Shown here: positions 1,462-30,145 of the stretch, in pieces | How the letters are laid out: each line of letters begins with the position of its first letter | Numbering within the stretch: position 1 is the first letter of the stretch | Origin: Candidatus Omnitrophota bacterium | Lineage (GTDB): Bacteria; Omnitrophota; Gorgyraeia; Zapsychrales; JANLHA01 | Assembly: GCA_963662715.1 (NCBI GenBank) | Contig: OY759724.1 | Span: forward strand, 300,001-332,000 | Reading direction: 5' to 3' | Length of the DNA: 32,000 nt | Made by a program: the position numbers and the translations under genes | Notes under the pieces: model-generated | Seen by the model: the letters and a program-made list of their open reading frames with translations, nothing else | Told to the model about the DNA's origin: nothing | The model's database searches: none

Positions 1462-1465
1462 ATAT

Positions 1466-1741: not shown

Positions 1742-1757
1742 GACTTTATTCCTATGC

Positions 1758-2777: not shown

Positions 2778-2781
2778 TCCC

Positions 2782-5108: not shown

Positions 5109-5115
5109 CCCCGCA

Positions 5116-5793: not shown

Positions 5794-6952
5794 GATTGTC
5801 TCCTGTATTTAAACCTCGTCTGGTCCCTCTACCTAAACCAGCTCCTGCTGATAATGTCTTAATATAATTCGCAACCTTCCCGCCGCCGGTTCTTGAAATA
5901 GATGCCTGCATCCTCTCTTTAAATTGACTGCCGGCTGCTGAAGCCAGCGTCTTAATCGTTGTGCCCGTAGCTATACCTATTTTGCCTATAGGTGTTGCTC
6001 CCGGAGTCATCTGGGCCTTTGCAACTCCGACCTTTGTGGCTTCATAAACAGCCGCACCTGCACCGACCGTTTCCCGTGCTGCCCCTGTCGTGCTGTGGAT
6101 TAAAGTTCGTGCTCCGTATAGACCGCCTAAAGCAGTACCGGCAGCTATCGTTCCAATACCGTGTCCAAAATTCATATTAATTGATCCGGTTAATAATGAT
6201 GCGCCCATATCCGGCACCTTCAACGCCATAAAAAGATAAGTCAAACTTGCCGCCAGAATAGAAAAGTAAGACTCAAAAAGATTGCCCTGTGCATTTTTAA
6301 CAACATTGATCCAATTGGTCGTCAATGTCTCGCCTAACCCCACAATCAAGGTTAGGAATAAAAGTTTTAATCCAATGTGAACAGCAGTCACAAAATACCG
6401 TTCTGCAAACTGTCTCGTCCATTGGCTCCCTGCAAAGCCTAAAACAACTATCCCTCCGGCTAAAATTATTTTCCCTCCGATTAAGGTTAGGGCCATTTCA
6501 ATAGAAATAAGTAAAAACGAAAGGAATACAAGAAGAGCAACAATCACATTAAAGATCGCAGCCCCGACCTTTTCCAGTAATCCGCCCGCAAAGGATGTCG
6601 TGAGCATAGTGCTCGCCAAATCGACTCCCCGTCTTGCCACATCGCCGGGATACAATTGACTTACGCCCACCATCTGCTCCCCTGCCTCGCGCAAGCTGTT
6701 ATAGATAGCTGGTATCCATGTGTCGGCATGATCAATCACCATGAGAAAGAATGACAGCACCAAAATCTTTTTGGCAAACTCAACCATAAGATTCGTCGGG
6801 TCGTCTCTGTTGAGCATCCACACGATTCCGGCCCAAATGATTTGAATGACAGCCAGCAACATAAAAAGGTCATGCGCAATATTAATTGCGATCACTTCCC
6901 AATTAAAAATATCATTGTTGTACTGGGCTAATAAATTATCGAAAATCTGCAT
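5777..6952 (-). CDS. trbL: T4SS inner-membrane protein TrbL/VirB6
   Basis: 391 aa, polytopic with about 6 hydrophobic helices and a Gly/Ala/Thr-rich C-terminal tail. Sits after trbJ. Confidence 0.8.
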   Translation of the reverse strand: MQIFDNLLAQYNNDIFNWEVIAINIAHDLFMLLAVIQIIWAGIVWMLNRDDPTNLMVEFAKKILVLSFFLMVIDHADTWIPAIYNSLREAGEQMVGVSQLYPGDVARRGVDLASTMLTTSFAGGLLEKVGAAIFNVIVALLVFLSFLLISIEMALTLIGGKIILAGGIVVLGFAGSQWTRQFAERYFVTAVHIGLKLLFLTLIVGLGETLTTNWINVVKNAQGNLFESYFSILAASLTYLFMALKVPDMGASLLTGSINMNFGHGIGTIAAGTALGGLYGARTLIHSTTGAARETVGAGAAVYEATKVGVAKAQMTPGATPIGKIGIATGTTIKTLASAAGSQFKERMQASISRTGGGKVANYIKTLSAGAGLGRGTRRGLNTGDNHGNTK

Positions 6953-7035
6953 CGGATAACCTTTTCCTTCTTAGACACTTCTTCCTTTTCTTAACAAATC
7001 CAGAATATTTATTAATAAAGGGGAGTTTATAAGAA

Positions 7036-7758
7036 TCAATACCCAGGGGTATTTCCCGCCGTAAACGGTATTTCATGAAAAAACTCTTCAGCAGCGGCAT
7101 TGTCCGCGGCTTCCTTATTAACCTGATGCGCCATATAGGCATTTTGGGCCTGTATCTGTGACATATTAAGCTGACGAAGTTTTTGTAGCTGTCCTACCAT
7201 TTCATTAGCGATCATATTCGCTGCCTGTAAAGCCTGGGTCTGGCCTTCCGCACTATCTGAAAGATTTCGTATTGTTTTCATAGTGGCATCTTCTGTCTGA
7301 AACTGATTGCTTTGTAATCCCGCTGCCGCAAAAGATCCGGCAATCGAATCCAGTGTTGTCTGCGACCAGTCCTGATAAGATTGAATATAATCTACAGGCG
7401 GGTCATACCCAGGATACTTTGCTTTAAACACCTGTTCGATATTCTGCAAGGTATAAGACATGGCCTGCCCTTGCTTGACAATCTGCTGAAGTTGCTGCAA
7501 AGCCTGGATTGTTTTTCCCCACTCGCTTTGAGGAAACGTGGCAATACTTTTAAACATCTCGATTTGATTCTGGATCATCTGAATTTGATTAACTACCATC
7601 TGTGCCTGTTTGGCTACTGAAGCAATCAACTCAGCATGATTCAATAACTGTGTCATTTCCGTCGCATAGATAGCATAGGAATTTTTAATAGGAACAATGC
7701 TAAAAATAAATATAAAAATCATATGTGTTATACGTTGATGTAATAGTTGTGTCTTCAT
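7036..7758 (-). CDS. trbJ: T4SS protein TrbJ (VirB5-like), secreted coiled-coil
   Basis: 240 aa with a signal peptide and a Gln-rich helical body (QMVVNQIQMIQNQIEMFK...). Lies immediately after trbE with a 4-nt gap. Confidence 0.7.
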   Translation of the reverse strand: MKTQLLHQRITHMIFIFIFSIVPIKNSYAIYATEMTQLLNHAELIASVAKQAQMVVNQIQMIQNQIEMFKSIATFPQSEWGKTIQALQQLQQIVKQGQAMSYTLQNIEQVFKAKYPGYDPPVDYIQSYQDWSQTTLDSIAGSFAAAGLQSNQFQTEDATMKTIRNLSDSAEGQTQALQAANMIANEMVGQLQKLRQLNMSQIQAQNAYMAHQVNKEAADNAAAEEFFHEIPFTAGNTPGY

Positions 7759-7762
7759 CGTC

Positions 7763-15761: not shown

Positions 15762-18700
15762 TTATTTTAATAAAAAGTTTCGTAATTGAGGAAATTTTCT
15801 ACCCACATTACTTAATAAATCCTGCAAATCTGGAGGATTTATTGTCCCCTCTTCATGGCCCCATGTAACAACGAATTCAGGAGAAATACCAGCCCCAATT
15901 CCTCCAGCAATTCCACATGCACCTCCCAGCTCTCCTTCTCCATAAGTACCGGTTCCAGATATCTGTCCCGCAACACCCTGTCCAGCAGCGGCAAATCCAG
16001 ATATTGAGAATCCAAATTGCGAAATGTCTTCAGGGTCAATGAATGTTTCATAGATACCGACCTGTATGCTAACATACGCACCTCCTTTAGGTCCAACACC
16101 AACTGAACCATAAAACCATCGATGGTACTCACCAGTAGTAATATTGACTAATATCATTTCTCCACCGCCGCCAGTCAAACCTAAACCACCGGAGCCGCCA
16201 GCTACTATATACAACCATTTCTCCAACCCCATCGGATCTACAAAATTCACCGGATCGCCGAGGGTGTACGCATACAGATCCCAATCCCCACCATCAAAAC
16301 CGATAGGATCTTTGGCCGTCCATCTCCCTACTTCTGGGTCGTAATCGCGGAAGCCGAAGCGGACGAGGCCAGTATCGCGATCGTGGAGACCCCCAGCAAA
16401 ACCGAATGGGACTTCGAAGCTTGGTGCGCTGTCGTTAATGATGTTTCCGAAAGAATCGTAGTCGATGCGCTTGACAACTGCCCCACTTGCATCGGTGACT
16501 ACGCGCAACGAGCCGACTTGATCATAGGTCAAGTAGTAAGCGGAACCACCCTTCACCATTTTAAATGGCATTCTAGCGTCAGCATACTCAAACCGCATCA
16601 GTAGGTTATTCGAGCCGTTATATACCGCCAATAACTGCGTGAGGCCATCCCAGAGATATTTCTCGGTTGTAACGCTGTTGACTTGCTTGGCGATCCTTCT
16701 GCCTAGTGGATCGTGGACATATTTGATGGTATTTCCACCCGGAAGGGCTACCTCAAGCAGTTCTCCTCTTGAAGAATAATCATAGGTCGTTGAAGATATG
16801 CCTTCGACTTTCGTCCGCAGAAATCCGTCATCATCATACTGATACGTTGTACTTCCTGCGGTTAAAAGCTGGTCCTCATCATTGTAGCCGTAGCTCTTAC
16901 CGCTGATCCCCCGAAGAATGTTGGTTTCCAAAGAACGTATGCCATTATTATATGCATATTCTTCAACTAATGTACTATCCTTATACACTTTTGTCAATCG
17001 TCCAACAGCGTCGTACTCATAAGAATAGTCCGCTGTCACGCCTGCGACGGTTTCGGTCTTAGCCGAAATCTGTCCGTTATCATTATACGTCAACGACCAA
17101 TTCGTGACCGGTAAACTGTTAACTATGACAGCCTGATTCTCCAGTTCGCCATACCCATTAAAGGTGCGGCCTAGGTTGAGAACACCATCGTCAACAGACT
17201 CAGGCAATCCATTATTTGCATTACGGATAATCGTAAAGCCTGAAGCCGAAGTCAACAACCCGTCATTGTCATACCCAAATCCAGCAGTATCCCCTGAATA
17301 CGTAAAACCGGTCAATTGAAAATCATTGTTGTATGCATAGGAAAGCGCCTGATTCAGCGTCCCAGCCAATGTTTTGGATGTGACCAGAGCGCCGTCATAT
17401 CCATACGTCACAGATTCGCCGCTCTTGGACATGGTCTGCAACTGCCCTGATGACGGGAAATATATCATATCCACATTGCCTTCAGGCGTCTGAATCTGCG
17501 TGAGCTGGGTGTTGGTATAGATATTTTTGATAATTTTCCCGGATGGAAACGTCTTCTGCAATAGCCGCCGGTCTTTATCATAAGTATACGCATAATCAGC
17601 AGACAAGGGCGGATCATAGGTTTTAACTCCATTGACCTTGTTATAAATATACCCATGATTGATTGTTTTCGGGTTAGTCAGCACGGTCATGTTTCCGTTC
17701 AAGTCATACGTGAAATGGATATCCGTGGAATCCGGGCGATGCACCGCGGTAGTGCGGCCCACAGCATCATATTCAAAGGTCGTGATCTTATGCAGAGGAT
17801 CTTCAATGGACTGAACATTACCGTCGCTGTCATACATATACTGAGTCTGGCGCGTTCCGGTTGTAACCGACTGCAGGCGTCCGTCCGGATAATACAGGTA
17901 ATCCGTATCCAGCAATCCCGGCGCACTTACCTTTGAAGTTAACAGCGTTGCCGGATCATAGGTCGTCGTTACTGCCCTGCCTAGCGGCGAGGTCTGAGTG
18001 ATCTGCGAGGTAAGCGTATCATTAACGGATGAAGATGTCTTGCCGTTAACCGTGACTGTGCGTTCAATATGGTCAACCGCGCCATCCGTGTTCGTATCCG
18101 TGTATGTGCGGCTAGACGTAGTTTGCATTATCAGCCCTGCCGGAGTTTGTGCAGACATTTCCTTGATATATTTTGTTTTGTACTCCGGATCATAATCATA
18201 TTGAAAATCAAGGACTGTCCCATCTGGAAGAACTTTGTTGACTGTCAACTCATCCGCGGAGCGGGTGTAATCTGTGATCAAGCCGTCAGGGTCTGTAATG
18301 GTTGAGCTATATGTCCCATTGGTATCCGTATGATCTAGATACGTTGTGATATTGCCTTCGGCGGTGGTAACGGTCGTCTCAATATCGCCGTTATTCAGAA
18401 CCGTTCGGGCAAAAGATTTATGCCCTTCCTCCTGATCATAGGCATCGGTCAAACGTCCGTTTGCATCGAATGTATGCGTGAAATAATTGCCGTTAGGCTC
18501 GGTCTCTTTGGTCATGAGCCCGCCTAAAGTATACTCAAAATCATAACCCGTACTGTCAGGATATTCGATACGCGTCAGATGATCATCTGTATCAACGGTC
18601 AGTTCGTTGCGAACGCCGTCAGGTGAAATGATCGCGGTGGGTACGCCATCGCCATCGCGTTCGACCGTAACCACATTGCCCATATTGTCCGTGATCGAAA

Positions 18701-21700
18701 CAAGGCGGTCTTCACTATCATACCCAAACGTCTCAAGCGTAACACCTGTGTCCAGGTCGCGCGTTTCTTTGTGAAGTCCTGTTTCTGACATCACATACTC
18801 AAAGCCGTCTTCCACAAAGACCTTCTCTTGGGACGTCGAGGTCATCAGCGAATTCATTTCCTCTTCAGGAAGGTCCCGGTCATAGACCCGCACATCATCC
18901 ATCTTTCCTTTAAAATAGTTACCCCATGTTCTCACTACACCTATATATCCAACACCATTAGAATAATACATTGCCCCTGCATCCCCACTATATGCTCCAC
19001 CGACATTGATGCCATTAATATAAATATCCATATTATTGCGACCTCGAATCACACCAACAATATGCGTCCACATATGCAAAGGCAGTACTGTGCCGGTCGA
19101 TTTCGAGTTTCTTGTATGACTGGATGCACGAGTGCCTTCCCTATCCCTCCCGCTTCCAAAATGTGCCTCAACTCCTCCGGTTCCCGAAACCTCCATAAAC
19201 GGCCCAAAATAATGATCCGGCGGATCATCCAGGGAAATGAGTCCTCCCGTTTGATATCCTTCCGGATATATCCACATCGAAAAGGTTACCGGCAAAGATG
19301 GCCTAATTTGATTGCCAATATTAATATAGTCGTTCACTCCATCAAATTCATAGGCACTATTTTCCTGACCAAATCTGTCGTCAGACATTATCGCCCCGGA
19401 AACCGTCCCATCATTACTATAACCACCCTCATCATTGGCATTGCCGTCAAATGGATAATAGGCGATTAAGCCGGAATAAACACTGTTAATCAACGCATCT
19501 TTCAAAATCCGCCCGTCTCCCGTATACAACTTACCTGCGTTTTCTCCATGATGATTCGATAACGCCCATCCTTCCATCAGGATATTTTTTGCCTTTGACG
19601 GACTGCTGATTTTTAAAGTATATTTCTCCCATAACGTTATTTCATTCCGCGCTTTGACTCCTGTTACAGTTGTGCCGGTACTTCCAAAAGCACTTGATGA
19701 TGTAATCCCTTGATAAACGTTATCATACACAAACCCCACCTCTACAGAAGCGATTGCGGTCCCCACCCTATTCCCTAAATAATTCAACCCATCCCACAAA
19801 AATTCTATCTGTTGGTTAGGCAACGGATCAAGTGTCTGTTTCATCACCTGACCAGCGATCGTAAGACGCACAATAATACTTTTAAGCGAATCTGGGACCA
19901 TATCATCAGTAACAGGAACATTGATCACGGTTTTATAGTCCTGAGTCCGGTTGCTCGCGTAATGCAGGGTCAGGCCTGTGCCGGAGACAGGGATATCTTC
20001 ATGATATACACGGCTGCGGCATGTGGCATAAGAATTCAAATTTTCTTTACATGGATCAGAAGTTTGCTGATCAATATTTACTAACTTCGACAAGAGCCAT
20101 GTGATGGCATCAACTGGTATCCCAAACGGCCAGTTACAATCCCAAGGTGAAAAATGTTTTGTTGAAAAACGCCAATACGTCGTTCCCGGCACATATTTCG
20201 CCGGATTATTTAATCCCAAGACCTCATCATCAAAAAAACCATCTCCATCTAAATCATCCTCAACATCATCTCCATCCGCGTCTAAGGCATCCACCACACC
20301 ATCGCTGTTGGTGTCCAGAAGTTTCACAACGACCCCATTCTCCGAGGGAACCCAAACTCCTCGGTCACGATCGTAATATCCCACCGGGACTATTTCTCCT
20401 ACATCAAACCCTAAAAAGTTATCTACGTAATTGACAATGGGTTTATCAAAACGCACGCGCTCTACTCCATCCACTTTAAGCTCTGCGCAGTATGTAAACG
20501 CGGATGTCGGAGGCAGGACTGCCGGCATGGACTCAGGAGTAGTGTATTCCGTAGCACGGGTAGTAATAGTATTAAGCTCAAACATATCGTTACCGTATTC
20601 ATCAACCGCATAAGCTTTATTATCTCCTGTGAAAACCATCGTTGCCCTGCGCGTGCCGGATTCGTCCGTAACCGGCGTACTTTCGTGGACGATAACTGTA
20701 TTCGGGTTACTGTCAAATGTAAAAGTAGTGGCCTTGGTGTCTTCGGCAATCATTGTGATTGTCTCAACAATCGCGATATCATTCCATGGAACATTCACCT
20801 TACGGTGCGCGGTCAGCAGACCATCTTTACTAAAGATAACATTGAGCGTGCCGCCCCCTTCAACTGGCAATGAATACTGACCATTCATATTGGTTTTTGT
20901 CGTCCCGTATTCCGGATGGTTGTCGATGGCAACAAGCACATCGGCCAAAGGAACTTCATTCACGTCATTAACATATCCTGTAATAAGAGAAAACCGCTTG
21001 GAATCATATTCTTCAATGGTTGCGTCGGGTGGGATAATGTTTTCATATTGCTTTCCAAAAGAACCCTCCGGTAAAGGCGTTGGAGTAGATTCAACGGTTA
21101 CCATGACTTGTGCGCTAGCAGAACCTTCCGGGCCCGTTGCTGTGATCGTATAGATGGATGTGCTGGCCGGAGAGACTTCCATAGTGTCGTTGGCAGAAAC
21201 AAGCCCTATGCCGTGATCAATGTATACACTGGTAACATTTTCCGCAAGCCAGGATAAAATCGTTGAGTCACCTTTTTGAATTGTTTGCGGAGAGGCCGTG
21301 ATATTGACAATTGGAAGAAGTGCAGAGCTTTCGACAACAATGGTAACATTATCAGTTGCAACCCCTCCCGCCCCCGACACTGTAATTGTGTAAGCTATGG
21401 TTGAGGCAGGTGAAACATCCTGCAAATCATTGCAATCCACAATACCAATGTCAGGCACAATTTCACACGTGTCTGCATTTGTTGATATCCAACTCAGTGT
21501 AGATGTTTCTCCTTCCTGAATTGTCATTGGATCAGCTTCTATATCAACCGTAGGCGCCTCCGGTGGCGGATTGACCGTGACTGTCACACTATCTACCGCA
21601 CTCCCGCCCGCACCTGTGGCGGTTATTGTGTACGTGGTAGTCTCATCGGGTGTGAGGGGAATTGATCCTGACGGGCCGAAAGTGCCCAATCCAGGAGTAA

Positions 21701-22229
21701 TCTCACAGGAATCAGTATCCGTTGAGGTCCAACTCAATGTGATTGATTCCCCTTCTATGACCGTTGCAGGATTAGAATTGATGCTGACCGTCGGTTGAGC
21801 TGGCGGCACTTTTATATCCCCTAAAATCTCGACTGTATAAGTAAACCTTGCCCGCTGGGAATTGTCAAATTCCCATCTTTTACTATCAGTTGTTGCACCC
21901 GGTAACAATTCGCCCAAAGCAACAGAATATTCAAAATATGGCTTTCCATCAGATGTCATCCCATCTGGATTCGCTACGGTAACACTGGCAGCACTGATAC
22001 TATCAATAACCGCCTTCATCGGAGTTAATAATGTATCCTGAGAGGTATTCTTTAACGAAACGTCCAAGTAATTAATACTGGTTCTGCGGTCAAAACTGAG
22101 TCTTGATTTAATCAGCTCAATCTTACCGGTAATATCCGTTTCCGCCGATGAAATGGTTAAAAATGAAAAAAGTGCGCAAACGATTCCCAGGACAATCAAC
22201 CAAATAGACTTCTTAAAATGTTGAGTCAT
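15762..22229 (-). CDS. RHS/YD-repeat polymorphic toxin, teneurin-like architecture (2155 aa)
   Basis: Domain order: Sec signal peptide; 3 Ig-like repeats; CarboxypepD_reg-like domain; Asp-rich Ca-binding-like stretch (DALDADGDDVEDDLDGDGFFDDE); LamG/ConA-like domain (YYPFDGNANDEGG...MDDVRVYDRDL); dozens of YD repeats (YxYDxxGR/N); RHS core end motif GDPVNFVDPMGL; then a 153-aa C-terminal domain. SD GGGAGGAG precedes the ATG. Confidence 0.95.
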   Translation of the reverse strand: MTQHFKKSIWLIVLGIVCALFSFLTISSAETDITGKIELIKSRLSFDRRTSINYLDVSLKNTSQDTLLTPMKAVIDSISAASVTVANPDGMTSDGKPYFEYSVALGELLPGATTDSKRWEFDNSQRARFTYTVEILGDIKVPPAQPTVSINSNPATVIEGESITLSWTSTDTDSCEITPGLGTFGPSGSIPLTPDETTTYTITATGAGGSAVDSVTVTVNPPPEAPTVDIEADPMTIQEGETSTLSWISTNADTCEIVPDIGIVDCNDLQDVSPASTIAYTITVSGAGGVATDNVTIVVESSALLPIVNITASPQTIQKGDSTILSWLAENVTSVYIDHGIGLVSANDTMEVSPASTSIYTITATGPEGSASAQVMVTVESTPTPLPEGSFGKQYENIIPPDATIEEYDSKRFSLITGYVNDVNEVPLADVLVAIDNHPEYGTTKTNMNGQYSLPVEGGGTLNVIFSKDGLLTAHRKVNVPWNDIAIVETITMIAEDTKATTFTFDSNPNTVIVHESTPVTDESGTRRATMVFTGDNKAYAVDEYGNDMFELNTITTRATEYTTPESMPAVLPPTSAFTYCAELKVDGVERVRFDKPIVNYVDNFLGFDVGEIVPVGYYDRDRGVWVPSENGVVVKLLDTNSDGVVDALDADGDDVEDDLDGDGFFDDEVLGLNNPAKYVPGTTYWRFSTKHFSPWDCNWPFGIPVDAITWLLSKLVNIDQQTSDPCKENLNSYATCRSRVYHEDIPVSGTGLTLHYASNRTQDYKTVINVPVTDDMVPDSLKSIIVRLTIAGQVMKQTLDPLPNQQIEFLWDGLNYLGNRVGTAIASVEVGFVYDNVYQGITSSSAFGSTGTTVTGVKARNEITLWEKYTLKISSPSKAKNILMEGWALSNHHGENAGKLYTGDGRILKDALINSVYSGLIAYYPFDGNANDEGGYSNDGTVSGAIMSDDRFGQENSAYEFDGVNDYINIGNQIRPSLPVTFSMWIYPEGYQTGGLISLDDPPDHYFGPFMEVSGTGGVEAHFGSGRDREGTRASSHTRNSKSTGTVLPLHMWTHIVGVIRGRNNMDIYINGINVGGAYSGDAGAMYYSNGVGYIGVVRTWGNYFKGKMDDVRVYDRDLPEEEMNSLMTSTSQEKVFVEDGFEYVMSETGLHKETRDLDTGVTLETFGYDSEDRLVSITDNMGNVVTVERDGDGVPTAIISPDGVRNELTVDTDDHLTRIEYPDSTGYDFEYTLGGLMTKETEPNGNYFTHTFDANGRLTDAYDQEEGHKSFARTVLNNGDIETTVTTAEGNITTYLDHTDTNGTYSSTITDPDGLITDYTRSADELTVNKVLPDGTVLDFQYDYDPEYKTKYIKEMSAQTPAGLIMQTTSSRTYTDTNTDGAVDHIERTVTVNGKTSSSVNDTLTSQITQTSPLGRAVTTTYDPATLLTSKVSAPGLLDTDYLYYPDGRLQSVTTGTRQTQYMYDSDGNVQSIEDPLHKITTFEYDAVGRTTAVHRPDSTDIHFTYDLNGNMTVLTNPKTINHGYIYNKVNGVKTYDPPLSADYAYTYDKDRRLLQKTFPSGKIIKNIYTNTQLTQIQTPEGNVDMIYFPSSGQLQTMSKSGESVTYGYDGALVTSKTLAGTLNQALSYAYNNDFQLTGFTYSGDTAGFGYDNDGLLTSASGFTIIRNANNGLPESVDDGVLNLGRTFNGYGELENQAVIVNSLPVTNWSLTYNDNGQISAKTETVAGVTADYSYEYDAVGRLTKVYKDSTLVEEYAYNNGIRSLETNILRGISGKSYGYNDEDQLLTAGSTTYQYDDDGFLRTKVEGISSTTYDYSSRGELLEVALPGGNTIKYVHDPLGRRIAKQVNSVTTEKYLWDGLTQLLAVYNGSNNLLMRFEYADARMPFKMVKGGSAYYLTYDQVGSLRVVTDASGAVVKRIDYDSFGNIINDSAPSFEVPFGFAGGLHDRDTGLVRFGFRDYDPEVGRWTAKDPIGFDGGDWDLYAYTLGDPVNFVDPMGLEKWLYIVAGGSGGLGLTGGGGEMILVNITTGEYHRWFYGSVGVGPKGGAYVSIQVGIYETFIDPEDISQFGFSISGFAAAGQGVAGQISGTGTYGEGELGGACGIAGGIGAGISPEFVVTWGHEEGTINPPDLQDLLSNVGRKFPQLRNFLLK
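15765..16223 (-). other. RHS C-terminal toxin domain (153 aa), glycine-zipper-rich, candidate membrane-active effector
   Basis: Begins right after DPMGL (GAG codon at 16221-16223). Contains GGSGGLGLTGGGG, GFAAAGQGVAGQISG and GGACGIAGGIGAGI. No nuclease, deaminase or peptidase motif recognised. Confidence 0.5.
21090..21797 (-). repeat. Three tandem ~80-aa Ig-like repeats inside the RHS N-terminus (protein-level repeat)
   Basis: Repeated pattern P.TI.EGES.TLSW.S...C.I.P.IG......SP..T..YTIT.TG.GG.A...VTV at residues ~145-380. The DNA copies have diverged. Confidence 0.7.
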
Positions 22230-22290: not shown

Positions 22291-22899
22291 TTATAAAGCG
22301 GACAACTTGTCATAAAGCTCTTTCTGGGCTTTAGAAAAAGTCCTGTTAATAGCTAGGTTTGCTCTTTCATGTGCTTTTCGGTGATAAGTGGGTCCCGTTC
22401 CAGCACCGCTTTCCTCTCGATCATGACAGACAACCTCGGCTAAAGTTACTGGCTGACCGTTTTTAACTTCAATGACTTCAAAACGAATGCTAATCTCAAA
22501 AGCGGCTTTGGTGAATAACATCATTTTAGCTTTATAATGGACATCTTCTATTGTGACTCGAAGAACAAGGGGATGGTCTGCTGAGGCTGAATTTTCTTCC
22601 TGCTCTCTACCGAAGAGCGACGTCATTAAATTTTTGCTGTTTTGCAAAAAGACATCATAGAAATCCGCACGCATACGTTCTAGCCTTTCTCCTTTGTGAC
22701 CAATCGGGAATATTTCCAAAACACGAGCATCTTCAAAGGAGTCAGTATCGATTGTCCACGGACGGTTTGAAACAAGCTTCGACTCCATCTTGAATGAATG
22801 GTGCGTCCGTGAAGCCATGCGCTCAGATGTGCATGCTGAGAACAGAATCGGTAAAAATAAGATTGAAAAATATATCTTCACACATTTATTCATAATCAT
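22291..22899 (-). CDS. Lipoprotein, unknown function
   Basis: 202 aa. Signal peptide with lipobox LFSAC. Its start shares one nucleotide with the upstream gene's stop (TAATG). Lies 61 nt upstream of the RHS gene. Confidence 0.75.
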   Translation of the reverse strand: MIMNKCVKIYFSILFLPILFSACTSERMASRTHHSFKMESKLVSNRPWTIDTDSFEDARVLEIFPIGHKGERLERMRADFYDVFLQNSKNLMTSLFGREQEENSASADHPLVLRVTIEDVHYKAKMMLFTKAAFEISIRFEVIEVKNGQPVTLAEVVCHDREESGAGTGPTYHRKAHERANLAINRTFSKAQKELYDKLSAL

Positions 22900-23519
22900 T
22901 ACTCCTTTTTATTAAGCAAGGGAGAATTATTTATAAGTTTCTTAACTAGGCTCCCAATTGCCGTTTTTTGCGGATCAGTGCTAAATTCATGAATCACCGT
23001 CCTTGAACTTGAAAGAGCAACTAAAGTAAAAGGTGTGTCGATCCAATCCTGATTTGCCTGTTCAGACCAGAACAATTTCCCTGTTTCATTATCGACAATA
23101 TAAAGGGTAACTGCGGCTTTTCCCGTTTCTGCCAAAATGGGAATACCCTCTTTTTCATTTTTATCGATAGTATAAATAAGGACGTGTTTGAAGGCTGTCG
23201 GGGCTATAGCACGCATGTTTTTTCCTGATTTAATTGATTCGATTTGGGCTGGAGTGATTTTGAAATCAGGACAGCAATCACTTGAAATGATGAGTGAATA
23301 ACCGTTATCGGCTAAATTACTGACTATTCCTGTATAAAGCCAATTCTTAATGGGGTAATATTTCTCTTTAGAGCCTGTGTCCTCAATAACAAGCAATGGC
23401 GCGAGAATGACTTTTTCACGAGTCGAATAATCAGCGGTATGCTCCATAGTACCGCAACCCGCAAAGATAAGAAGGAAAACGATAAAGGTAAATAAAAATA
23501 CCGACCTTTTTATAGACAT
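22899..23519 (-). CDS. Lipoprotein, possibly LpoB/DUF799-like alpha/beta fold
   Basis: 206 aa with lipobox IFAGC. The pattern VILAPL...LADNGYSLI...HVLIYTID...VTLYIVDNETGKLFWSE recalls TolB-N/LpoB/GNA1162-type lipoproteins. That family call is inference only. Confidence 0.7.
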   Translation of the reverse strand: MSIKRSVFLFTFIVFLLIFAGCGTMEHTADYSTREKVILAPLLVIEDTGSKEKYYPIKNWLYTGIVSNLADNGYSLIISSDCCPDFKITPAQIESIKSGKNMRAIAPTAFKHVLIYTIDKNEKEGIPILAETGKAAVTLYIVDNETGKLFWSEQANQDWIDTPFTLVALSSSRTVIHEFSTDPQKTAIGSLVKKLINNSPLLNKKE

Positions 23520-23860: not shown

Positions 23861-24403
23861 CTATGTACGAATTCTTCTCTTCTTTCTGCTGCCAAATACA
23901 CCAGCCAAGCCCGTGCTGAAAAGAAACAATGTACATGGCTCAGGAATGACATTCGACTCTGTGGCCAAATCAATGTTATAAAGGCGTGCGGTACTGCCAG
24001 CGTCAAAATCTCCTCCCCAGATCAATCCCCAGGCCAGAGATACTTCACTTCCCTGATACGAGGATAAGTCGATGTCATAATGACCGGCAGATGTGTTAGC
24101 ATCCACCTCCAATTCCGGGAAAAAGTCCAGTTCAAACGTAAAATAATCATCCACATCATCGGGCCCAAGCTGAAAATCATAGTCAAAAGACAAAATCGTG
24201 GCATCATTCTCGACAAGAAAGTTATCATTGAAAAAATACCAAGCCACGTTATCCATTGTTTCCGTGAATGAAACTTCCCCGCCACTGACAACCACATCAT
24301 CCTCTGCCGTAAAACCGCTTAAATCGAGCGGCATGGCTTGTGCAATCCGACAGCATAATAACATGCAAAAACTTACACATAGCACCATAAACATTCGTCT
24401 CAT
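23861..24403 (-). CDS. PEP-CTERM sorting-domain secreted protein
   Basis: 180 aa with an N-terminal signal peptide. The C-terminal VIPEPCTLFLFSTGLAGVFGSRKKRRIRT gives a PEP motif, a TM helix and a basic tail. Confidence 0.9.
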   Translation of the reverse strand: MRRMFMVLCVSFCMLLCCRIAQAMPLDLSGFTAEDDVVVSGGEVSFTETMDNVAWYFFNDNFLVENDATILSFDYDFQLGPDDVDDYFTFELDFFPELEVDANTSAGHYDIDLSSYQGSEVSLAWGLIWGGDFDAGSTARLYNIDLATESNVIPEPCTLFLFSTGLAGVFGSRKKRRIRT

Positions 24404-24549
24404 AAAACCGGTCTCCTTTTAAAATTTATTATCGATTAACGTGTAACTAGATCAAAGCTTAGCAAAACGCTCAAGAATCGTCAAGATGACATAGCCGGAC
24501 AAAAGTAGACAATGAAAAAAAGCAAAAAAGAAGCGTAATTAGCTTGGGT

Positions 24550-24723
24550 TTAATCTGAAAATAGGAAATGTCTCATTCCTCCAACGATCCCAAAAAAAAT
24601 CATAAAAAACGGGAGCAAAACACATCCCAATACACATCCGGCAATCATTCCGACGATAATAAAAATACGGTCAATTATGCAAAAAATTGCAACCAATAAT
24701 AAAATAGACAATACTATACTCAT
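24550..24723 (-). CDS. Unlisted small hydrophobic ORF (57 aa, MSIVLSILLLVAIFCIIDRIFIIVGMIAGCVLGCVLLPFFMIFFGIVGGMRHFLFSD)
   Basis: Hand-translated. GAGG lies 8 nt upstream of the ATG at 24723. Two predicted TM helices. Divergent from the XRE gene. Confidence 0.35.
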   Translation of the reverse strand: MSIVLSILLLVAIFCIIDRIFIIVGMIAGCVLGCVLLPFFMIFFGIVGGMRHFLFSD

Positions 24724-24789
24724 ACTAATTCCCTCAAAAACATATAAAAAGATTTTTGCTAGCAGCGTGGAAAAATAAAACGCCTAGAG

Positions 24790-24808
24790 ACATACCTATA
24801 CGGTATGT
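24790..24808. promoter_or_regulatory. Palindromic candidate operator between the small hydrophobic ORF and the XRE gene
   Basis: ACATACC tatac GGTATGT: perfect 7-bp arms with a 5-bp spacer, ~90 nt upstream of the XRE ATG. Confidence 0.4.
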
Positions 24809-24897
24809 ACATTATACACAAATCTTGTACTCTTGTAAAGGCATTTCATACCCCTACCTGAGTGTACCTTAGCGGTATTGTCATAGATAATAAATCC

Positions 24898-25125
24898 ATG
24901 AAAAATGATCCCAAATATATCAAAAGCATTCTTGCCAAAAACATAAAAAAATATCGCGGGAAATTAAACCTGACTCAGGAACAAGCCGCGGAAAAGGTGG
25001 GCATCACCGCAAAATACTGGCAACGGCTGGAAATGGTTTCCCAAATTGACCTTCCCTCTCTACAAGTCCTCTTTCGCATCGCGGAAGGTCTTAAAACAAA
25101 ACCCTATAAGCTGTTGGTGGAATAG
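24898..25125 (+). CDS. XRE-family helix-turn-helix transcriptional regulator
   Basis: LAKNIKKYRGKLNLTQEQAAEKVGITAKYWQRLE is a canonical Cro/C1 HTH. I prefer the ATG at 24898 (75 aa) to the GTG at 24862 used by the track. Neither has a strong SD. Confidence 0.85.
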   Translation: MKNDPKYIKSILAKNIKKYRGKLNLTQEQAAEKVGITAKYWQRLEMVSQIDLPSLQVLFRIAEGLKTKPYKLLVE

Positions 25126-25311
25126 AAAAAATTTCATCTATAATGAAACTGTTTGTCACGGAATGTTAGCTTGTAGGATTAACTGCCTATAAGAACGCCC
25201 ATTGTGAACACTAATCCTCAATTCATTTTTCTAGTTATAAACTTACTACAAAAAAAGACATCATTCAATTTTTAAGGAAATAAATAAAAGGATTATTGAT
25301 AGCTTCTATTT

Positions 25312-26466
25312 TTATACTTTACGGCGCATTACAACTTTAAACATGTTCCCATCTTTATCATTGACAAAATCAATATCTGGATACTCTTTTAAAGCTCTTT
25401 GCACGCCGGTCCCGATCCCGCGATAGGGTAATATCTTTGTTGCAAATGAAGACAATATTGGATTGCGTACATTGGAATTACCATTTTTGATATTCTCAAC
25501 TGTCAAGTTATTGGGCAAATGACCAGGACTAATAAATTCAAGACGGTTATCAAATATGAATATTCTTATGGATGCAGAAATAAAATAATCTCTATGGATT
25601 AATGCATTGACCAATAACTCCTCAATTGCTATTTCGGGTATTTCAAGCACTCCAAGAGAATTAATATTTTGACCATTTTGAACTTTTTTTAAATTTCTAA
25701 GAATAAACGATTTGCTTTCTTTGAAAACGTCTTCTAATTTTCCTACCACATCAACACTTTCTATATATGTTGTTGAATGAATGTCATTGCCTGGATAACA
25801 TATAGCCTTAACTATGCTTCTAACTGGCAACTTTATTTGTGGATTTTTAGCAAAAAGAAGTGCTCCACCTACATTCATATTTCCATCTTTCATCAAATTC
25901 ATGTTTTCCAGAAGGACTGGAAGAGGGTTTTCTTGATCATCGAGCTTGATCCCATTGATTTTTTCAAAAAACATGGAAAAATATTGCACGTCTAATTCAG
26001 CAACAGTCATATTAGAAATAATTTCCTCATCCCCATGTAGTAAACCAGCTTTTTGAAATAACCGTTGTATTTCTTCTTTGGCAGTAGCTTTGCGTTTGTC
26101 TGCACCACTTTTTACCCAGAAAACGCCATCTTTGTCAGAATACGGCTTGCTTATACCATCTATGACAGTAATAATGATTATAATCTTTCCGTCTAACGAA
26201 ATGTTTTCCGTATGGGGATTAATGGGATTCTTGACATGCTGGGATGCTGCGTTAGATATCAGATTATTCAATCGGTTAATATCCTGCTGTGACAAACCAA
26301 CAATATCACCATTATCGTTTACACCGATAAATATTTGTCCTCCTCCAGAATTACTAAAAGCAATCATTTCTTGTGCTAATGAAATCTCGTTGGTGAAATC
26401 CTGTTTGAATTGATGTTTACTATCTTCCCCCCGAGAAATTATTTCTAAGAATTCTGTAACTTCCAT
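25312..26466 (-). CDS. AlbA_2 (Schlafen-like DNA/RNA-binding) plus HATPase_c_4 domain protein
   Basis: 384 aa. The N-terminus EDSKHQFKQDF...EMIAFSNSGGGQIFIGVNDNGDIVGL is AlbA_2. The C-terminus EELLVNALIHRDYF...IFIFDNRLEFISPGHLPNNLTVENI..GNSNVRNPIL...RGIGTGVQR is RecG-C/HATPase_c_4-like. Its start overlaps the upstream gene by 22 nt. Confidence 0.85.
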   Translation of the reverse strand: MEVTEFLEIISRGEDSKHQFKQDFTNEISLAQEMIAFSNSGGGQIFIGVNDNGDIVGLSQQDINRLNNLISNAASQHVKNPINPHTENISLDGKIIIIITVIDGISKPYSDKDGVFWVKSGADKRKATAKEEIQRLFQKAGLLHGDEEIISNMTVAELDVQYFSMFFEKINGIKLDDQENPLPVLLENMNLMKDGNMNVGGALLFAKNPQIKLPVRSIVKAICYPGNDIHSTTYIESVDVVGKLEDVFKESKSFILRNLKKVQNGQNINSLGVLEIPEIAIEELLVNALIHRDYFISASIRIFIFDNRLEFISPGHLPNNLTVENIKNGNSNVRNPILSSFATKILPYRGIGTGVQRALKEYPDIDFVNDKDGNMFKVVMRRKV

Positions 26467-29087
26467 ATCTGATAAATCTCCTTTCGTCGATTAAAAGCCT
26501 CTTTACCACCTTCCATAATATCGACTATTTTCTTCTGTGTGTATGGGCAGTCAATATTCCCTTTATCGACATCAATTTTATCATCCGTATAATGACACGC
26601 AAAAATACACTCAGAATCGCCAAGTACTGGTATATTCGCATTGTGTGTGGCAAATATAAATTGAGTTCCTTCCTTTAGTTCCTTTATGAGCTTTATAACA
26701 TCTTCATAGATTGTCTGATTATCCAAATCATCCTCTGGTTGATCAATCAATATTAAATCGTTGTCTCGTTGACTTAAAACAAAAAGAATTAATGCCGATG
26801 CCCTTTGTCCGAGAGAATGATGTTTTAATTCCTTCCCCCGATAATTAATCGTAAAACGATTAGGTACTTGCCAAGTAAGCAATTCAATCAAATTATCATT
26901 AAAATAACTCTCGAAAATATTTGAGGCTGCCCCTAACATGTCCTTTACTTTTTCGAATTCCTTAAACATTGCTCCAAAATCTGCGAACGACTCTGACAAA
27001 CTTTTAAAGGTGGTTTCTCTAATTTTGCTACCACGAAAGATGTTTTTCATATAATCGACGCATGCGTTCTTATCTTCTTTAAATTCAACGATAATTTGTA
27101 GAGCAGAATGATTTTTATTAACCTTTTCAAGTTCTGCTTGGACTGCGATATATTCTTCATGCCATAAATTGTTTAAAGCAGTCAACTCCGTGATTAATTC
27201 TGTCTTTAATTTTGCTTGTTGAGTTTGTTGTTTCTCAAGAGCTGTTAACATTTGAGTTGCCTGATCAACAATTTTCTTTAATTTTAGGAATTCGTCAGGA
27301 CGTATTGCTTGTGCACCTTTCTCTTTTAACTCCTCCGAAAGTTTTCTCTCTATCTCAGCAAATTCTTCTTTAAGACCATTTTTCAGTTTGTCAAATTCTT
27401 GCGCACGACTAGTCAAATCATTTATGCCGGAAGTCGCGATTTCAAAAGCCTTTTTAATCTGCTCAAATGATTGAATAATTTTTGTATATGATTCAAAATA
27501 TCTTAAAAAGAAATCTTTGTTGCGCTTTGACTCATAACGGTTTTGACTAACAATTTCATCCTCATAGCGAGCGATAAAATTTGTCAATGATCCCAAGTAA
27601 TCCTTTGTTATTTTTAATACCTGTTGTGTTTTTCTACTATCTGCTTCGAAATCAATTTGTTTTTGAAGTTTATCTTCAACAGAATGTTTCTTGTAAAAAT
27701 CCAGTTTAAAAACGGCGTCTTTTTTCTTTGCATCATATTCTTTCTTTTTTTCTTCAACATTTTCCAATTTTTTTAATTGGGCTATAACATCTGCGACTTT
27801 TTGTTTCTGTGCTTCAATACGGTTTCTAACACCCGCTAAATGATCTCCAACTAATTTCTCAACAAGGTCTTTTTCAAATCCTTCGCCTGAACTTGATAAA
27901 TCCTTTTGTCCAAAATATATAGGCCGAGAAATAATTGTTTCTCGAATAGACACTCCTACCTGAAGAGTGTCATTAACATATACGTCGGGTTGTTCATTTA
28001 AAATGCGACGTATTTCATACTCCTGTCCCCTCCGGTCTACGGCTTTCAATACAACCTTCCCACCACTTCCCAAAACATGTTGAACTAATTTATTTTTATA
28101 TACATCATCTACAACTTTGTCACCAAAAGGTATATCTAATGCATATCTTACCGCTTCCAATATTGATGACTTCCCACTCCCACGGATACCTATCAAAGAG
28201 TTTAATTCGGGAGAGAAATCAATTTCCTTTCCCGCAAGCACACCCCCCTCAAAAGATATACTTTTAACAAAAGAATGCTTATGTTCAACGGGTTTAGAAG
28301 CAACTCTGTTAGCAAAGTCAACTAAGGCATACTTAACAGCGCCAAAATTAAAATCACCAATTTTTATATAGCATTTTTCGCCAGATCCTATTGTATCAAT
28401 AGATTTACAATCTGATCCTTCAACCTCAGCGGGGTACCAATCTCCAAGCCAATTCTGAACCTTGACTCTACATACTCTATCTTTTTCAGCCTCGTGTGTA
28501 CGCACTTTTTGAAAAGCCAGTGTTTTTTCTTTAAATTGTTCATTTCTCCCCAGCTCTTGAATGCGTCCTCCCGAAAGACTTCCCCATAAACCATTGTCTG
28601 CCTCGACATGAGCAAAAATGAGAAAGTAATCCCTTTCAAATTTATCTAATTCACGAATCGTCTCTAATAAATCATGATTTGATCTAGCATTTTCGTTATC
28701 ATAATTAGGTTGTCCAGAAAAAGTAACATTTAAGAAGTCATTAATATAGTTTTTATTCTCAGTGTTGCATATCCAATCATCATTAAAGACAACAAGAGCA
28801 TGAACACCTGCCTTGCCATCTTTTACTGAAAGCTCTATTCCAGGCAATAAAAATATTTCTTCTTTCAAAGCGCTTTTTCTTAAGGCTTTAAACTCATCTA
28901 GATCAAATTTATTATGATTCGTAATTATTCCCAAACGAATGCCATTATTTTTTAATGCAACAACATATTCATTTATGAAATTATTTTTATCTCCCTCGCA
29001 GGTGAATTCTTTATCTTTAATCGTGTGCAAGTGAAAGTCAGCACGAATCCAAGTAGAACCATATTTTAACAAATTAATATCACTCAT
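26445..29087 (-). CDS. PHP-domain phosphoesterase fused to an SMC/Rad50-like ABC ATPase with a coiled-coil insert (Ppl-like)
   Basis: 880 aa. PHP ligand motifs: ADFHLHT (H19/H21), ITNHN, PGIELS, VHALVVF, FAHVE. Walker A: GIRGSGKSS (28167-28190, K306). A Lys/Glu-rich helical region of about 300 aa follows. Signature-like HSLGQRA, Walker B LILIDQPEDDLD and H-loop FATHN are present. SD GAGGAGG precedes the ATG. Confidence 0.9.
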   Translation of the reverse strand: MSDINLLKYGSTWIRADFHLHTIKDKEFTCEGDKNNFINEYVVALKNNGIRLGIITNHNKFDLDEFKALRKSALKEEIFLLPGIELSVKDGKAGVHALVVFNDDWICNTENKNYINDFLNVTFSGQPNYDNENARSNHDLLETIRELDKFERDYFLIFAHVEADNGLWGSLSGGRIQELGRNEQFKEKTLAFQKVRTHEAEKDRVCRVKVQNWLGDWYPAEVEGSDCKSIDTIGSGEKCYIKIGDFNFGAVKYALVDFANRVASKPVEHKHSFVKSISFEGGVLAGKEIDFSPELNSLIGIRGSGKSSILEAVRYALDIPFGDKVVDDVYKNKLVQHVLGSGGKVVLKAVDRRGQEYEIRRILNEQPDVYVNDTLQVGVSIRETIISRPIYFGQKDLSSSGEGFEKDLVEKLVGDHLAGVRNRIEAQKQKVADVIAQLKKLENVEEKKKEYDAKKKDAVFKLDFYKKHSVEDKLQKQIDFEADSRKTQQVLKITKDYLGSLTNFIARYEDEIVSQNRYESKRNKDFFLRYFESYTKIIQSFEQIKKAFEIATSGINDLTSRAQEFDKLKNGLKEEFAEIERKLSEELKEKGAQAIRPDEFLKLKKIVDQATQMLTALEKQQTQQAKLKTELITELTALNNLWHEEYIAVQAELEKVNKNHSALQIIVEFKEDKNACVDYMKNIFRGSKIRETTFKSLSESFADFGAMFKEFEKVKDMLGAASNIFESYFNDNLIELLTWQVPNRFTINYRGKELKHHSLGQRASALILFVLSQRDNDLILIDQPEDDLDNQTIYEDVIKLIKELKEGTQFIFATHNANIPVLGDSECIFACHYTDDKIDVDKGNIDCPYTQKKIVDIMEGGKEAFNRRKEIYQIWKLQNS

Positions 29088-29118
29088 ATATTCCTCCTCG
29101 ATAATAGAAAATTTTCAT

Positions 29119-29724
29119 TCAAAGTATTGCATCAAGCCATGTTTGGATTAACGGTTTGATACGACAAATTTGCGCATATTTTAACAGCTTTTCTATATTG
29201 CGGTTTTTCTGTTTTAAATATTCAGACAAACCTTCTTTTGCGATGTCCACTCCTAATTTATTTCTATATCTAAAACAGTCGCAAATGGTTTTTTCCATAC
29301 AATATATACGTACAGGATTATCTTTTATTTTTATCTCAACGATTCCAGACTGAAACTGTTTCTGAGAAAAATAATAAAATTCTACAGGGGGATATGCTAA
29401 TTTAGGGCGCCATGATTTTCGATAGATGGCAACAGAAATCATAGACGGATTAAAAGTAGTCAACTCATAATATGAAAGTGCTGATAACAAACACACTACA
29501 CTTTCAGGAACGGCTTTTGAAACATCAATAAAACTTTGATTTGAAGTAGATGGTATCTGCGCCAGTTTATAAAGTCCATTCTTTACTTTTACGATATTTC
29601 CACCTTCAACCATCTCTTTTATTTTACGGGAATGAAATCCGTTAGCCAAAATATCTTTCGACCTTGCATATCCATTATGGCTTTTAAAGATATCTATAAT
29701 ATTATTTTGTTTTTTATTATTCAT
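29119..29724 (-). CDS. AbiEi-family (type IV TA antitoxin-like) transcriptional regulator
   Basis: 201 aa. The N-terminal wHTH IIDIFKSHNGYARSKDILANGFHSRKIKEMVEGGNIVKVKNGLYKLA and the C-terminal VCLLSALSYYELTTFNPS...VRIYCMEKTICDCFRYRNKLGVDIAKEGL match the AbiEi pattern. Lies 31 nt upstream of the PHP-ATPase gene. Confidence 0.8.
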   Translation of the reverse strand: MNNKKQNNIIDIFKSHNGYARSKDILANGFHSRKIKEMVEGGNIVKVKNGLYKLAQIPSTSNQSFIDVSKAVPESVVCLLSALSYYELTTFNPSMISVAIYRKSWRPKLAYPPVEFYYFSQKQFQSGIVEIKIKDNPVRIYCMEKTICDCFRYRNKLGVDIAKEGLSEYLKQKNRNIEKLLKYAQICRIKPLIQTWLDAIL

Positions 29725-29757
29725 AAAATTTATATTTCCCTTATGGATAATTTCATC

Positions 29758-29791
29758 GGCACATTATAACAAGTGCCTATGATGATGTCCA
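29758..29791 (-). promoter_or_regulatory. Near-consensus sigma-70 promoter of the AbiEi/PHP-ATPase/AlbA_2 operon, with an overlapping inverted repeat
   Basis: On the minus strand: TGGACA (29791-29786), a 17-nt spacer, then TGtTATAAT (-10 at 29768-29763), ~40 nt upstream of the ATG at 29724. The inverted repeat GGCAC(29758-29762)/GTGCC(29773-29777) brackets the -10. Confidence 0.55.
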
Positions 29792-30145
29792 GACATTTAT
29801 TTCCAAAAAATTAAGAGCATTAAAATAAGAATTTTTCTTAAATCCTCTATATATTTATTTTAAGTCTAATTATACCAATATGTTATCTGTTCTTATCATA
29901 ATTGTTCTGCTCTGTAACCATCTGCCAGCCGAAAATTTTGAGGAAAACGTTCTTCATAATGAAAAAATAATACGTTAATCGGTGGGATAAAGCAAGGCGG
30001 GTTACTTGGAATCAAGACAGGGCAGCTGCCCCCTATTATTTACCCCAATTATTTTTGCAAGTGGCACAGTTTTTTGGGGGGGCTCCGGAAGTCAATGTGT
30101 CTCGGGTTATTCATAACTTAGCGTCCAATTCCTCAATAGTCAGCA

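Follow-up and report, generated by a model that had tools for sequence, protein, structure and literature searches.

TrlF-TrlG module directly downstream of an orphan abiEi gene in a Candidatus Omnitrophota bacterium

The 32,000-nucleotide (nt) stretch of Candidatus Omnitrophota bacterium DNA analysed here (contig OY759724.1; hereafter the window) contains three minus-strand open reading frames (ORFs) in the same orientation, which encode an AbiEi-family protein, TrlF and TrlG, and the locus is probably a TrlF-TrlG two-gene module that sits directly behind an orphan abiEi gene and has displaced AbiEii. The TrlF-TrlG pair (TrlFG) travels as a promoter-less unit and has repeatedly been found within the operons of other defence systems, namely type 1 bacteriophage exclusion (BREX), restriction-modification (RM) of types I and III, and AbiE. 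The gene pair is already known, and what is new here is AbiEi as its swapped regulator. The layout reported in the preliminary description of this DNA, with three co-oriented genes, a 31-nt gap between abiEi and trlF, a 22-nt overlap shared by trlF and trlG, and TGGACA-17-TGtTATAAT upstream, was reproduced by the ORF coordinates and a promoter scan. The features are listed below, with comparison loci designated by L and a number.

29763..29791, minus strand: promoter-like site, −35 TGGACA at 29791-29786, 17-nt spacer, extended −10 TGtTATAAT at 29771-29763
29758..29777, minus strand: palindrome GGCAC-N10-GTGCC, which brackets the −10 box; candidate AbiEi operator predicted from the sequence
29119..29724, minus strand: abiEi, full-length AbiEi-family regulator/antitoxin of 201 amino acids (aa) without an AbiEii partner; PADLOC AbiEi 1.6e-68, residues 5-200
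29093..29099, minus strand: trlF Shine-Dalgarno GAGGAGG within the 31-nt gap; DNA homology to L081 begins here (29098)
25334..29098, minus strand: TrlF-TrlG transferable module, 83% identical to L081 at the nucleotide level in a blastn comparison of the window with L081, L001 and L004
26445..29087, minus strand: trlF, 880-aa TrlF-family protein, Ppl paralogue
25312..26466, minus strand: trlG, 384-aa Schlafen plus GHKL ATPase protein ('Schlatpase'), 22-nt overlap with trlF

The AbiEii position and the boundary of the module

The 880-aa protein matched the NCBIfam model NF045780, 'TrlF family AAA-like ATPase', with 561.2 bits over residues 10-873 and profile positions 2-944 of 944, above the curated cut-off of 350 bits, and the two-protein module that the preliminary description had taken as undescribed is TrlF-TrlG of the Photorhabdus TRL operon (PMC7554251). 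In Photorhabdus laumondii the trlR-trlF-trlG operon ("temperature restriction locus") leads to growth arrest at 36 °C (Hapeshi 2020, PMC7554251), its transcription is heat-induced, stable temperature-tolerant suppressors were found in trlG and none in trlF, and deletion of the whole operon is viable (PMC7554251). The Photorhabdus TrlG carries AlbA_2 at residues 14-128 and HATPase_c_4 at 298-365 and was misannotated as RecG, with TrlF annotated as a histidinol phosphatase (PMC7554251). The window shares with that operon, as matched by the family profile and the published coordinates, the order of the two core genes, the overlap of their ends and a trlG of ~384 aa with its domains at the same residues; records of homologues are likewise often misannotated as RecG or histidinol-phosphatase. 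The two loci differ in the regulator, which is the 79-aa TrlR in Photorhabdus and the 201-aa AbiEi in the window, and in the setting, which is polA-dsbA in Photorhabdus and an AT-rich island near type IV secretion system (T4SS) and RHS genes in the window.

The assignment of the first gene to AbiEi held over the full length of its protein; a Pfam search of the 201-aa sequence returned no match, and its closest homologues carry the AbiEi name. As in AbiE systems, the window has a full-length AbiEi with the promoter region of its own lineage, whereas the AbiEii nucleotidyltransferase is missing and its position is occupied by trlF-trlG, in agreement with the earlier proposal of a replaced partner. 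The ORF list of the window contains no AbiEii ORF after abiEi, only 31 nt precede trlF, and no AbiEii remnant is left here. The closest relative of the pair is L081, with a TrlG 90% and a TrlF 87% identical, where the two genes lie within a type 1 BREX operon without AbiEi. The DNA homology between the window and L081 begins at 29098, 11 nt before the trlF ATG, ends at 25334 and excludes abiEi; because it is confined to 29098-25334, the mobile unit corresponds to exactly trlF-trlG and the ribosome-binding site, without a promoter. The module in the window begins at its own ribosome-binding site in the 31 nt after the abiEi stop, where AbiEii normally sits. An integron-like cassette was rejected since there is no room for attC-like sites (11-nt gap, or 4-nt overlap with the downstream gene, in L081 and L091), and a repeat-flanked cassette was rejected since neither flanking direct repeats nor a tRNA was found in the window.

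AbiEii remnants were observed in related loci. L013 and L035, the two other genomes with AbiEi upstream, carry a 90-100-aa AbiEii N-terminal stub between AbiEi and TrlF, matched by PADLOC AbiEii at 3e-23 and 1.4e-28 over profile positions 4-71 and 1-78 of 299, respectively. The closest relatives of the window AbiEi (74-75% identity; L084-L089, with AbiEi at 4001-4603 in L084-L088 and at 3063-3689 in L089) are orphans, each followed by a 32-55-aa AbiEii N-terminal stub, and loss of AbiEii with retention of AbiEi seems to be recurrent in this lineage. Beside these orphan genes stands either a Fic gene or an RM system of the HinfI type. For each of the three AbiEi-TrlFG loci, the closest relatives of its TrlF (75-87% identical) are without AbiEi, and the three AbiEi proteins at the junctions are only 32-42% identical to one another; the three junctions are therefore independent. 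Our reading is that a promoter-less TrlFG cassette repeatedly landed in AbiE operons at the cost of AbiEii, with a clean replacement in the window.

The synteny of the pair was assessed from a TrlG seed (80 reference-genome loci, 77 assessable) and a TrlF seed (80 metagenome loci, 63 assessable). TrlF adjoins TrlG in 61/77 of the former and TrlG adjoins TrlF in 58/63 of the latter, mostly with overlapping stop and start codons, and the homologues, at least 6761 for TrlG and at least 4826 for TrlF, have very uniform lengths and ~60-65% identity across phyla. TrlF and TrlG form a tightly linked, translationally coupled pair in many phyla. AbiEi co-oriented within 1.2 kb upstream of TrlF was found in 2/44 genome loci and 0/60 metagenome loci (2/104), both of the former with AbiEii remnants. 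The cross-genome check proposed in the preliminary description thus turned out differently for the pair, which is syntenic, and for the trio, which is not, and the three genes could not be kept as a unit in view of these counts and the independent junctions. The upstream slot elsewhere is varied, with XRE, RHH, HTH_17 or TrlR regulators, type III Mod/Res, type I HsdM/HsdS, unrelated genes or no regulator. AbiEi is an occasional, independently acquired neighbour of TrlFG that most likely supplies only its autoregulated promoter.

The promoter-like site upstream of abiEi is the top-scoring match within 24.7-30.2 kb (11/12), in a region where the number of such sites is at chance level (26 vs 23.5 ± 4.7 in shuffles). 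Its −35 to −10 block is also kept in L084, L087 and L089, upstream of orphan AbiEi genes with 74-75% identity, so the site belongs to the AbiEi lineage, and GGCA...TGCC stands at the same place in these three loci though the flanks diverge. No terminator-like site was found between abiEi and trlF. As had been proposed, AbiEi probably sets the expression of the operon, since the TrlFG module has no promoter of its own. The AbiEi promoter would be the sole good candidate for driving trlFG in the window.

Anatomy of TrlF and TrlG

The domains of the two proteins are located in the window as follows.

28278..29060, minus strand: TrlF PHP domain, ~aa 10-270, predicted metal-dependent exonuclease/phosphoesterase
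26448..28271, minus strand: TrlF ABC/SMC-like ATPase head, split into an N half and a C half; Pfam AAA_21, AAA_23, SMC_N
27114..27878, minus strand: TrlF coiled-coil insertion, ~aa 404-658 (~250 residues), between the two halves of the ABC head
26086..26427, minus strand: TrlG Schlafen (AlbA_2) domain, motif E14-D15-x2-H18-Q19-x-K21
25378..25659, minus strand: TrlG GHKL/HATPase_c_4 ATP-binding domain, E283, N287, H291-R292-D293, S313-P314-G315, G350/G352/G354

The AlbA_2-HATPase_c_4 and PHP-ATPase architectures of the preliminary description were both recovered, through Pfam for TrlG and the TrlF head and by other means for the PHP domain, which a Pfam search of TrlF did not call. A PHP fold of the TrlF N-terminus is supported by the predicted structure and sequence, namely by the fold search, by Ppl homology and by invariant residues. 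Foldseek matched the N-terminal 270 residues to the RNase AM PHP (7ug9, TM 0.64), Pol III alpha PHP domains and metal-dependent phosphoesterases; the AlphaFold2 (AF2) confidence (pLDDT) is 87-95 in the core (~residues 11-160) and falls to 54-88 towards residue 270; and H19, H21, H58, E85, H96, H160 and D226 are invariant in the family conservation analysis, K306 of Walker A being as invariant in the family as H19 and H21 of the PHP domain.

The head of TrlF has Walker A G300-S307 and Q394 in its N half and the signature S758-R762, Walker B D782 followed by Q783, D-loop D789 and H815 in its C half, such that Walker A, Q-loop, signature, D-loop and H-loop are all intact. Q783, directly after D782 (IDQPEDDLD; window 26739-26744), lies at the position of the catalytic Glu and is invariant in 55/55 TrlF sequences, and the SMC head chain 5h68 aligned with TrlF reads 'VLDQVEAALD' at the Walker B position. 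Experimenters introduce the same Glu-to-Gln change after the Walker B Asp to keep ABC/SMC ATPases locked with ATP bound. Because Gln replaces the catalytic Glu, the TrlF head would be a nucleoside triphosphate (NTP) sensor or switch rather than a motor. A reading of this Gln as a peculiarity of TrlF was rejected since Ppl carries it too (whole Ppl/TrlF superfamily, DQPEDDLD). The insertion is modelled by AF2 as long helices at 404-440, 444-467, 471-517, 524-587 and 597-658, and the Foldseek matches for head and insertion are MukB, SMC, JetC, RecN and Rad50. TrlF resembles SMC/Rad50-like ABC ATPases in its split head, full set of motifs and coiled-coil insertion, but differs from them in lacking the catalytic Glu after the Walker B Asp and the Rad50-type zinc hook, no CxxC being found in the translated residues 404-658.

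The relation of the PHP-ATPase to Ppl, suggested in the preliminary description, stood at the level of paralogy. Ppl is a validated single-gene anti-phage system (Gao et al. 2020; PMC12904381) and a 3'-5' exonuclease of single-stranded DNA, which is inhibited by NTPs on its PHP and NTPase domains and activated by nucleotide depletion and 3'-OH ends (review PMC12904381). Both proteins have an N-terminal PHP domain and an SMC-like ATPase with a coiled coil, and the annotated Ppl of Pantoea shares with TrlF the HxH motif, H58, E85/H96, H160, D226, Walker A, the signature and 'DQPEDDLD'; the only motif difference seen is the last PHP motif, D-x-K in TrlF and D-x-H in Ppl. They differ in sequence, with 26% identity and a TrlF score of 138.6 bits on NCBIfam NF042955 against a cut-off of 1000, and in that Ppl acts as a single gene whereas TrlF is almost always translationally coupled to TrlG. 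The PADLOC Ppl match to TrlF is mainly N-terminal (1.9e-33). That TrlF is simply Ppl was rejected on the score far below the NF042955 cut-off and on the partner TrlG, TrlF being a clear paralogue nonetheless.

The trlG gene is preceded by a strong Shine-Dalgarno, AAGGAG, and Pfam places SLFN_AlbA_2 at residues 14-127 (1.3e-24) and HATPase_c_4 at 298-363 of its product. Foldseek returned first DIP2311 (uncharacterised), then SLFN11/13/14/5/12 and the SAMD9 tRNase domain, and then histidine-kinase CA domains. Prokaryotic Schlafen (pSlfn) enzymes have the canonical motif E(x)4(D/E)xK (PMC13056530), and in the Schlafen-Argonaute fusion system SLFN-pAgo (RzAgo) D32 of this motif is essential, D32A abolishing both tRNA cleavage and defence, with ATP binding via E314/N318 driving the tetramerisation that builds the nuclease (bioRxiv 10.64898/2026.05.29.728809). 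TrlG agrees with the pSlfn or 'Schlatpase' proteins in having AlbA_2 (PF04326) followed by the PF13749 GHKL domain with intact Mg-ATP ligands, and in its association with defence islands and BREX. The ligands E283 and N287 and the glycine-rich lid G350, G352 and G354 are invariant, and by motif comparison only the E-x3-N of TrlG corresponds to E314/N318 of RzAgo. TrlG is different from these proteins in having Gln at the position of RzAgo D32, no fused sensor domain and a separate partner gene, trlF. Its motif, E14-x4-Q19-x-K21, does not match the canonical E(x)4(E/D)xK, and E14 and Q19 are conserved in 83/83 and K21 in 81/83 TrlG sequences. Since Q19 is invariant at the position of an acidic residue, canonical Schlafen RNase chemistry is doubtful for TrlG, and its candidacy as a canonical Schlafen RNase was not supported.

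Looser parallels, by analogy, exist with PrrC/EcoprrI and PARIS, tRNA-targeting abortive systems that are RM-linked or guarded by an ABC ATPase. TrlFG is embedded in a type I RM operon like prrC and combines an ABC-type ATPase with a separate effector as AriA/AriB of PARIS does, with a weak PADLOC AriA match to TrlF (1.5e-10). TrlFG belongs to neither system by sequence, and TrlF carries a nuclease domain of its own.

Genomic setting of the pair

Insertion into larger defence operons was observed in several loci. In L081 the order is PglX-TrlF-TrlG-PglZ-BrxL (type 1 BREX); the genes downstream of it (L081:13730-17061) include those for a ThsB-like TIR protein, a HARE-HTH protein and a phage-type integrase, as is typical of a defence island carried by a mobile element. 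L091 is the E. coli IncC plasmid pNDM102337 (NC_019045.2 134295-145342), where HTH-HsdR-TrlF-TrlG-HsdS-ATPase-HsdM all overlap; this operon stands beside a Tn7-like tnsD and an integrase, and a second, AAA_13-like ATPase is also embedded in the RM operon. Across 63 loci with 93 immediate neighbours the recurrent ones are ResIII, N6_N4 and N6 methyltransferases, HsdS, HsdR, PglX, BrxH, DrmD and mad3, and these PADLOC counts, being split over many sub-models, give a qualitative picture only. A 2026 survey of BREX reports Schlafen-histidine-kinase proteins as frequent BREX-embedded "backup effectors" and leaves the PHP partner unmentioned (PMC12839542), and TrlF-TrlG is absent from the 2023 PADLOC catalogue. 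The defence role put forward in the preliminary description is plausible, since BREX and RM operons harbour the pair.

TrlG is found on 50 plasmids, 32 of them conjugative, and TrlF-family genes on 848 plasmid records. A search of 50,697 phage records gave 0 matches and one of 2.9 million viral contigs gave 2, and a phage origin of TrlFG was rejected on this near-absence.

The partner of TrlF varies in some divergent loci. At L160:7163-7597 and L161:2690-3133 an overlapping 145-148-aa GNAT acetyltransferase gene (Pfam Acetyltransf_1, 5e-10 and 1.7e-10) occupies the TrlG slot, which suggests exchangeable effectors behind TrlF and fits a sensor/nuclease with a swappable effector. At L148:3734-10680 a BREX operon contains a divergent TrlF (51% identity) without TrlG, followed directly by a 745-aa PglZ-like gene and BrxL, so that TrlF apparently can be embedded in a BREX operon alone. 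On an E. coli IncF plasmid a TrlF-family gene that stands alone has a DUF3800 gene nearby, and so does the annotated Pantoea ppl (L174:1003-2136 and L175:5206-6249), in Pantoea only 24 nt downstream of ppl. DUF3800 may be a partner, so far overlooked, of Ppl/TrlF proteins encoded as single genes.

In the window itself, the locus lies in an AT-rich block, as had been described, with a GC content of 0.338 in 24500-30000 vs 0.426 and 0.435 in the flanks, and the earlier hand count of 13/60 G+C at 27721-27780 was exact. The T4SS, RHS and XRE neighbours named in the preliminary description are all present. Relaxase, VirB11, TrbI, CagX, TrbL and VirB4-like genes lie at 10-10231, ~15 kb from the trio, and a 2155-aa RHS/YD-shell protein, which also has teneurin-like TTR and Laminin_G_3 domains, is encoded at 15762-22229 on the minus strand; just upstream of it on the same strand are two small ORFs (22291-22899 and 22899-23519), one of them lipoprotein-like. 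A 180-aa secreted-looking protein (23861-24403, minus strand) has a PEP-CTERM-like sorting signal at its C-terminus (…VIPEPCTLFLFSTGLAGVFGSRKKRR), a hint of an exosortase system in the host. The XRE-family HTH gene (87 aa, 24862-25125, plus strand) also belongs to the AT-rich block; it converges on trlG at a distance of 186 nt from the trlG stop codon, unlike the XRE genes at other TrlF loci, which are upstream of TrlF and co-oriented. The window was also searched for a tRNA, an integrase and flanking direct repeats marking an insertion, and none was found. The further claim that the trio is cargo of a conjugative element did not stand beyond plausibility, since it follows only from proximity to the T4SS genes, with none of these marks of an insertion present.

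Proposed mechanism, alternatives and meaning

On the preferred reading of a TrlF-TrlG module behind an orphan abiEi, trlFG would be transcribed from the native, autorepressed AbiEi promoter, and AbiEi would set the dose of TrlFG without being a mechanistic component. TrlF would act like Ppl, as a PHP exonuclease restrained by nucleotide binding to its SMC-like head, the latter serving with its Gln in place of the catalytic Glu to sense NTPs and not to drive a motor. TrlG may oligomerise on ATP through its GHKL domain, by analogy with RzAgo, and would be the growth-arresting effector, because arrest in Photorhabdus was relieved only by trlG mutations. It probably binds tRNA or RNA without canonical cleavage chemistry, or presents substrate to TrlF, because Gln is invariant where Schlafen RNases need an acid. 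The net outcome would be a back-up defence of the abortive-infection type, and an anti-phage role of TrlFG is likely. A broader proposition is more tentative and somewhat less likely than not: TrlFG may be a distinct, very widespread two-gene immune module, in which a Ppl-like, nucleotide-sensing PHP exonuclease is combined with a Schlafen-GHKL protein lacking the catalytic acid, with a mechanism new for Schlafens (substrate capture for a nuclease, or non-cleaving tRNA sequestration), which serves as a back-up layer in BREX, RM and AbiE operons, and for which AbiEi-TrlFG would be a recurrent toxin replacement.

Several observations weigh against the preferred reading. TrlG occurs without TrlF in ~20% of the TrlG-seeded loci and TrlF-family genes occur solo on IncF plasmids, so each protein appears able to function separately; the Photorhabdus genetics, the GNAT swaps, TrlG without TrlF and solo TrlF all fit a sensor/nuclease with an exchangeable effector. 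Many immediate neighbours of TrlFG are non-defence genes (radical SAM, ferredoxins, response regulators), and a search of one literature library found no paper with phage-protection data for any TrlFG locus. Two Enterobacterales Schlafen-HisKinase proteins gave no protection in E. coli, their orthology to TrlG and a TrlF partner not being evident (PMC13056530). Weak promoter-like minus-strand sites, no better than chance, lie within abiEi (29649..29621 and 29400..29371, 9/12 each), and co-transcription of trlFG from the abiEi promoter is itself deduced from sequence. The structural models of TrlG and TrlF are of moderate quality (pLDDT 70 and 73.5).

The alternative that survives best, though it is unlikely, is that TrlFG serves not against phages but as a growth-arrest or addiction module responding to stress or temperature, which came to lie in defence operons by hitch-hiking on mobile DNA. 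The sole experimental phenotype is a temperature-dependent arrest, accompanied by heat-induced transcription (PMC7554251), conjugative plasmids often carry the pair (32/50 TrlG plasmids), and the non-defence neighbours and the two inactive Schlafen-HisKinase proteins (PMC13056530) would also agree with it. However, TrlFG does not just lie near BREX and RM operons but is inserted in them with stop/start overlaps; TrlF is paralogous to the validated Ppl, with catalytic motifs common to both; Schlafen-GHKL modules defend in SLFN-pAgo; and the pair is virtually absent from phages.

Functional independence of the genes is less likely again. Here abiEi would be a decaying relic, trlFG would be expressed from a promoter of its own in the 3' part of abiEi, and the adjacency would have no regulatory effect, as the weak sites inside abiEi and the commonness of orphan AbiEi genes might suggest. 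Those sites are at chance level, however, and the module, whose homology starts 11 nt before the ATG, brought no promoter; abiEi is intact, its promoter and palindrome are conserved, and no terminator-like site precedes trlF.

Slightly below this in probability stands a toxin swap, in which AbiEi would be the antitoxin to TrlFG in a type IV-like toxin-antitoxin pair with TrlFG in place of AbiEii. Three independent junctions do place TrlFG exactly at the AbiEii position, TrlG leads to growth arrest in Photorhabdus, and abiEi is intact and of full length. Against this, AbiEi is not known to act as an antitoxin to anything but the AbiEii nucleotidyltransferase, 98% of TrlFG loci are without AbiEi, and close AbiEi relatives persist as toxin-less orphans, so that keeping abiEi needs no toxin. 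The least probable reading, in which the three proteins co-evolved as a single defence system of three components and AbiEi is the regulator dedicated to it, agrees with the tight spacing, the single good promoter-like site upstream and the recurrence of AbiEi upstream of TrlFG in L013 and L035, but as a conserved three-gene system it was rejected on synteny, module boundaries and phylogeny, as AbiEi precedes TrlFG in so few loci and there with a truncated AbiEii in between, the nearest TrlF relatives lack it, the AbiEi proteins are divergent, the L081 homology excludes abiEi, and other loci use XRE, RHH, HTH_17, TrlR or no regulator.

With the TrlF-TrlG module behind an orphan abiEi as the preferred reading, the locus would be a concrete case of the re-wiring of a defence cassette, in which a promoter-less module captured the autoregulated promoter of an orphan antitoxin. 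Schlafen-GHKL proteins are the largest class of bacterial Schlafens, at 34-59% of all according to two 2026 studies. None of the small stand-alone Schlafen-GHKL proteins is known to defend, two examples having failed when tested; TrlG represents a large, highly conserved clade of Schlafen-GHKL proteins with a dedicated partner, TrlF, often embedded in other defence operons, and because of this partner and this setting, testing a Schlafen-GHKL protein alone and out of context may miss its function. The unexplained growth phenotype of Photorhabdus is now linked to defence-island biology, and TrlFG is present on clinically important IncC (NDM) plasmids. The interest of the locus lies mainly in TrlFG, a widespread and probable defence module with unusual active-site substitutions.

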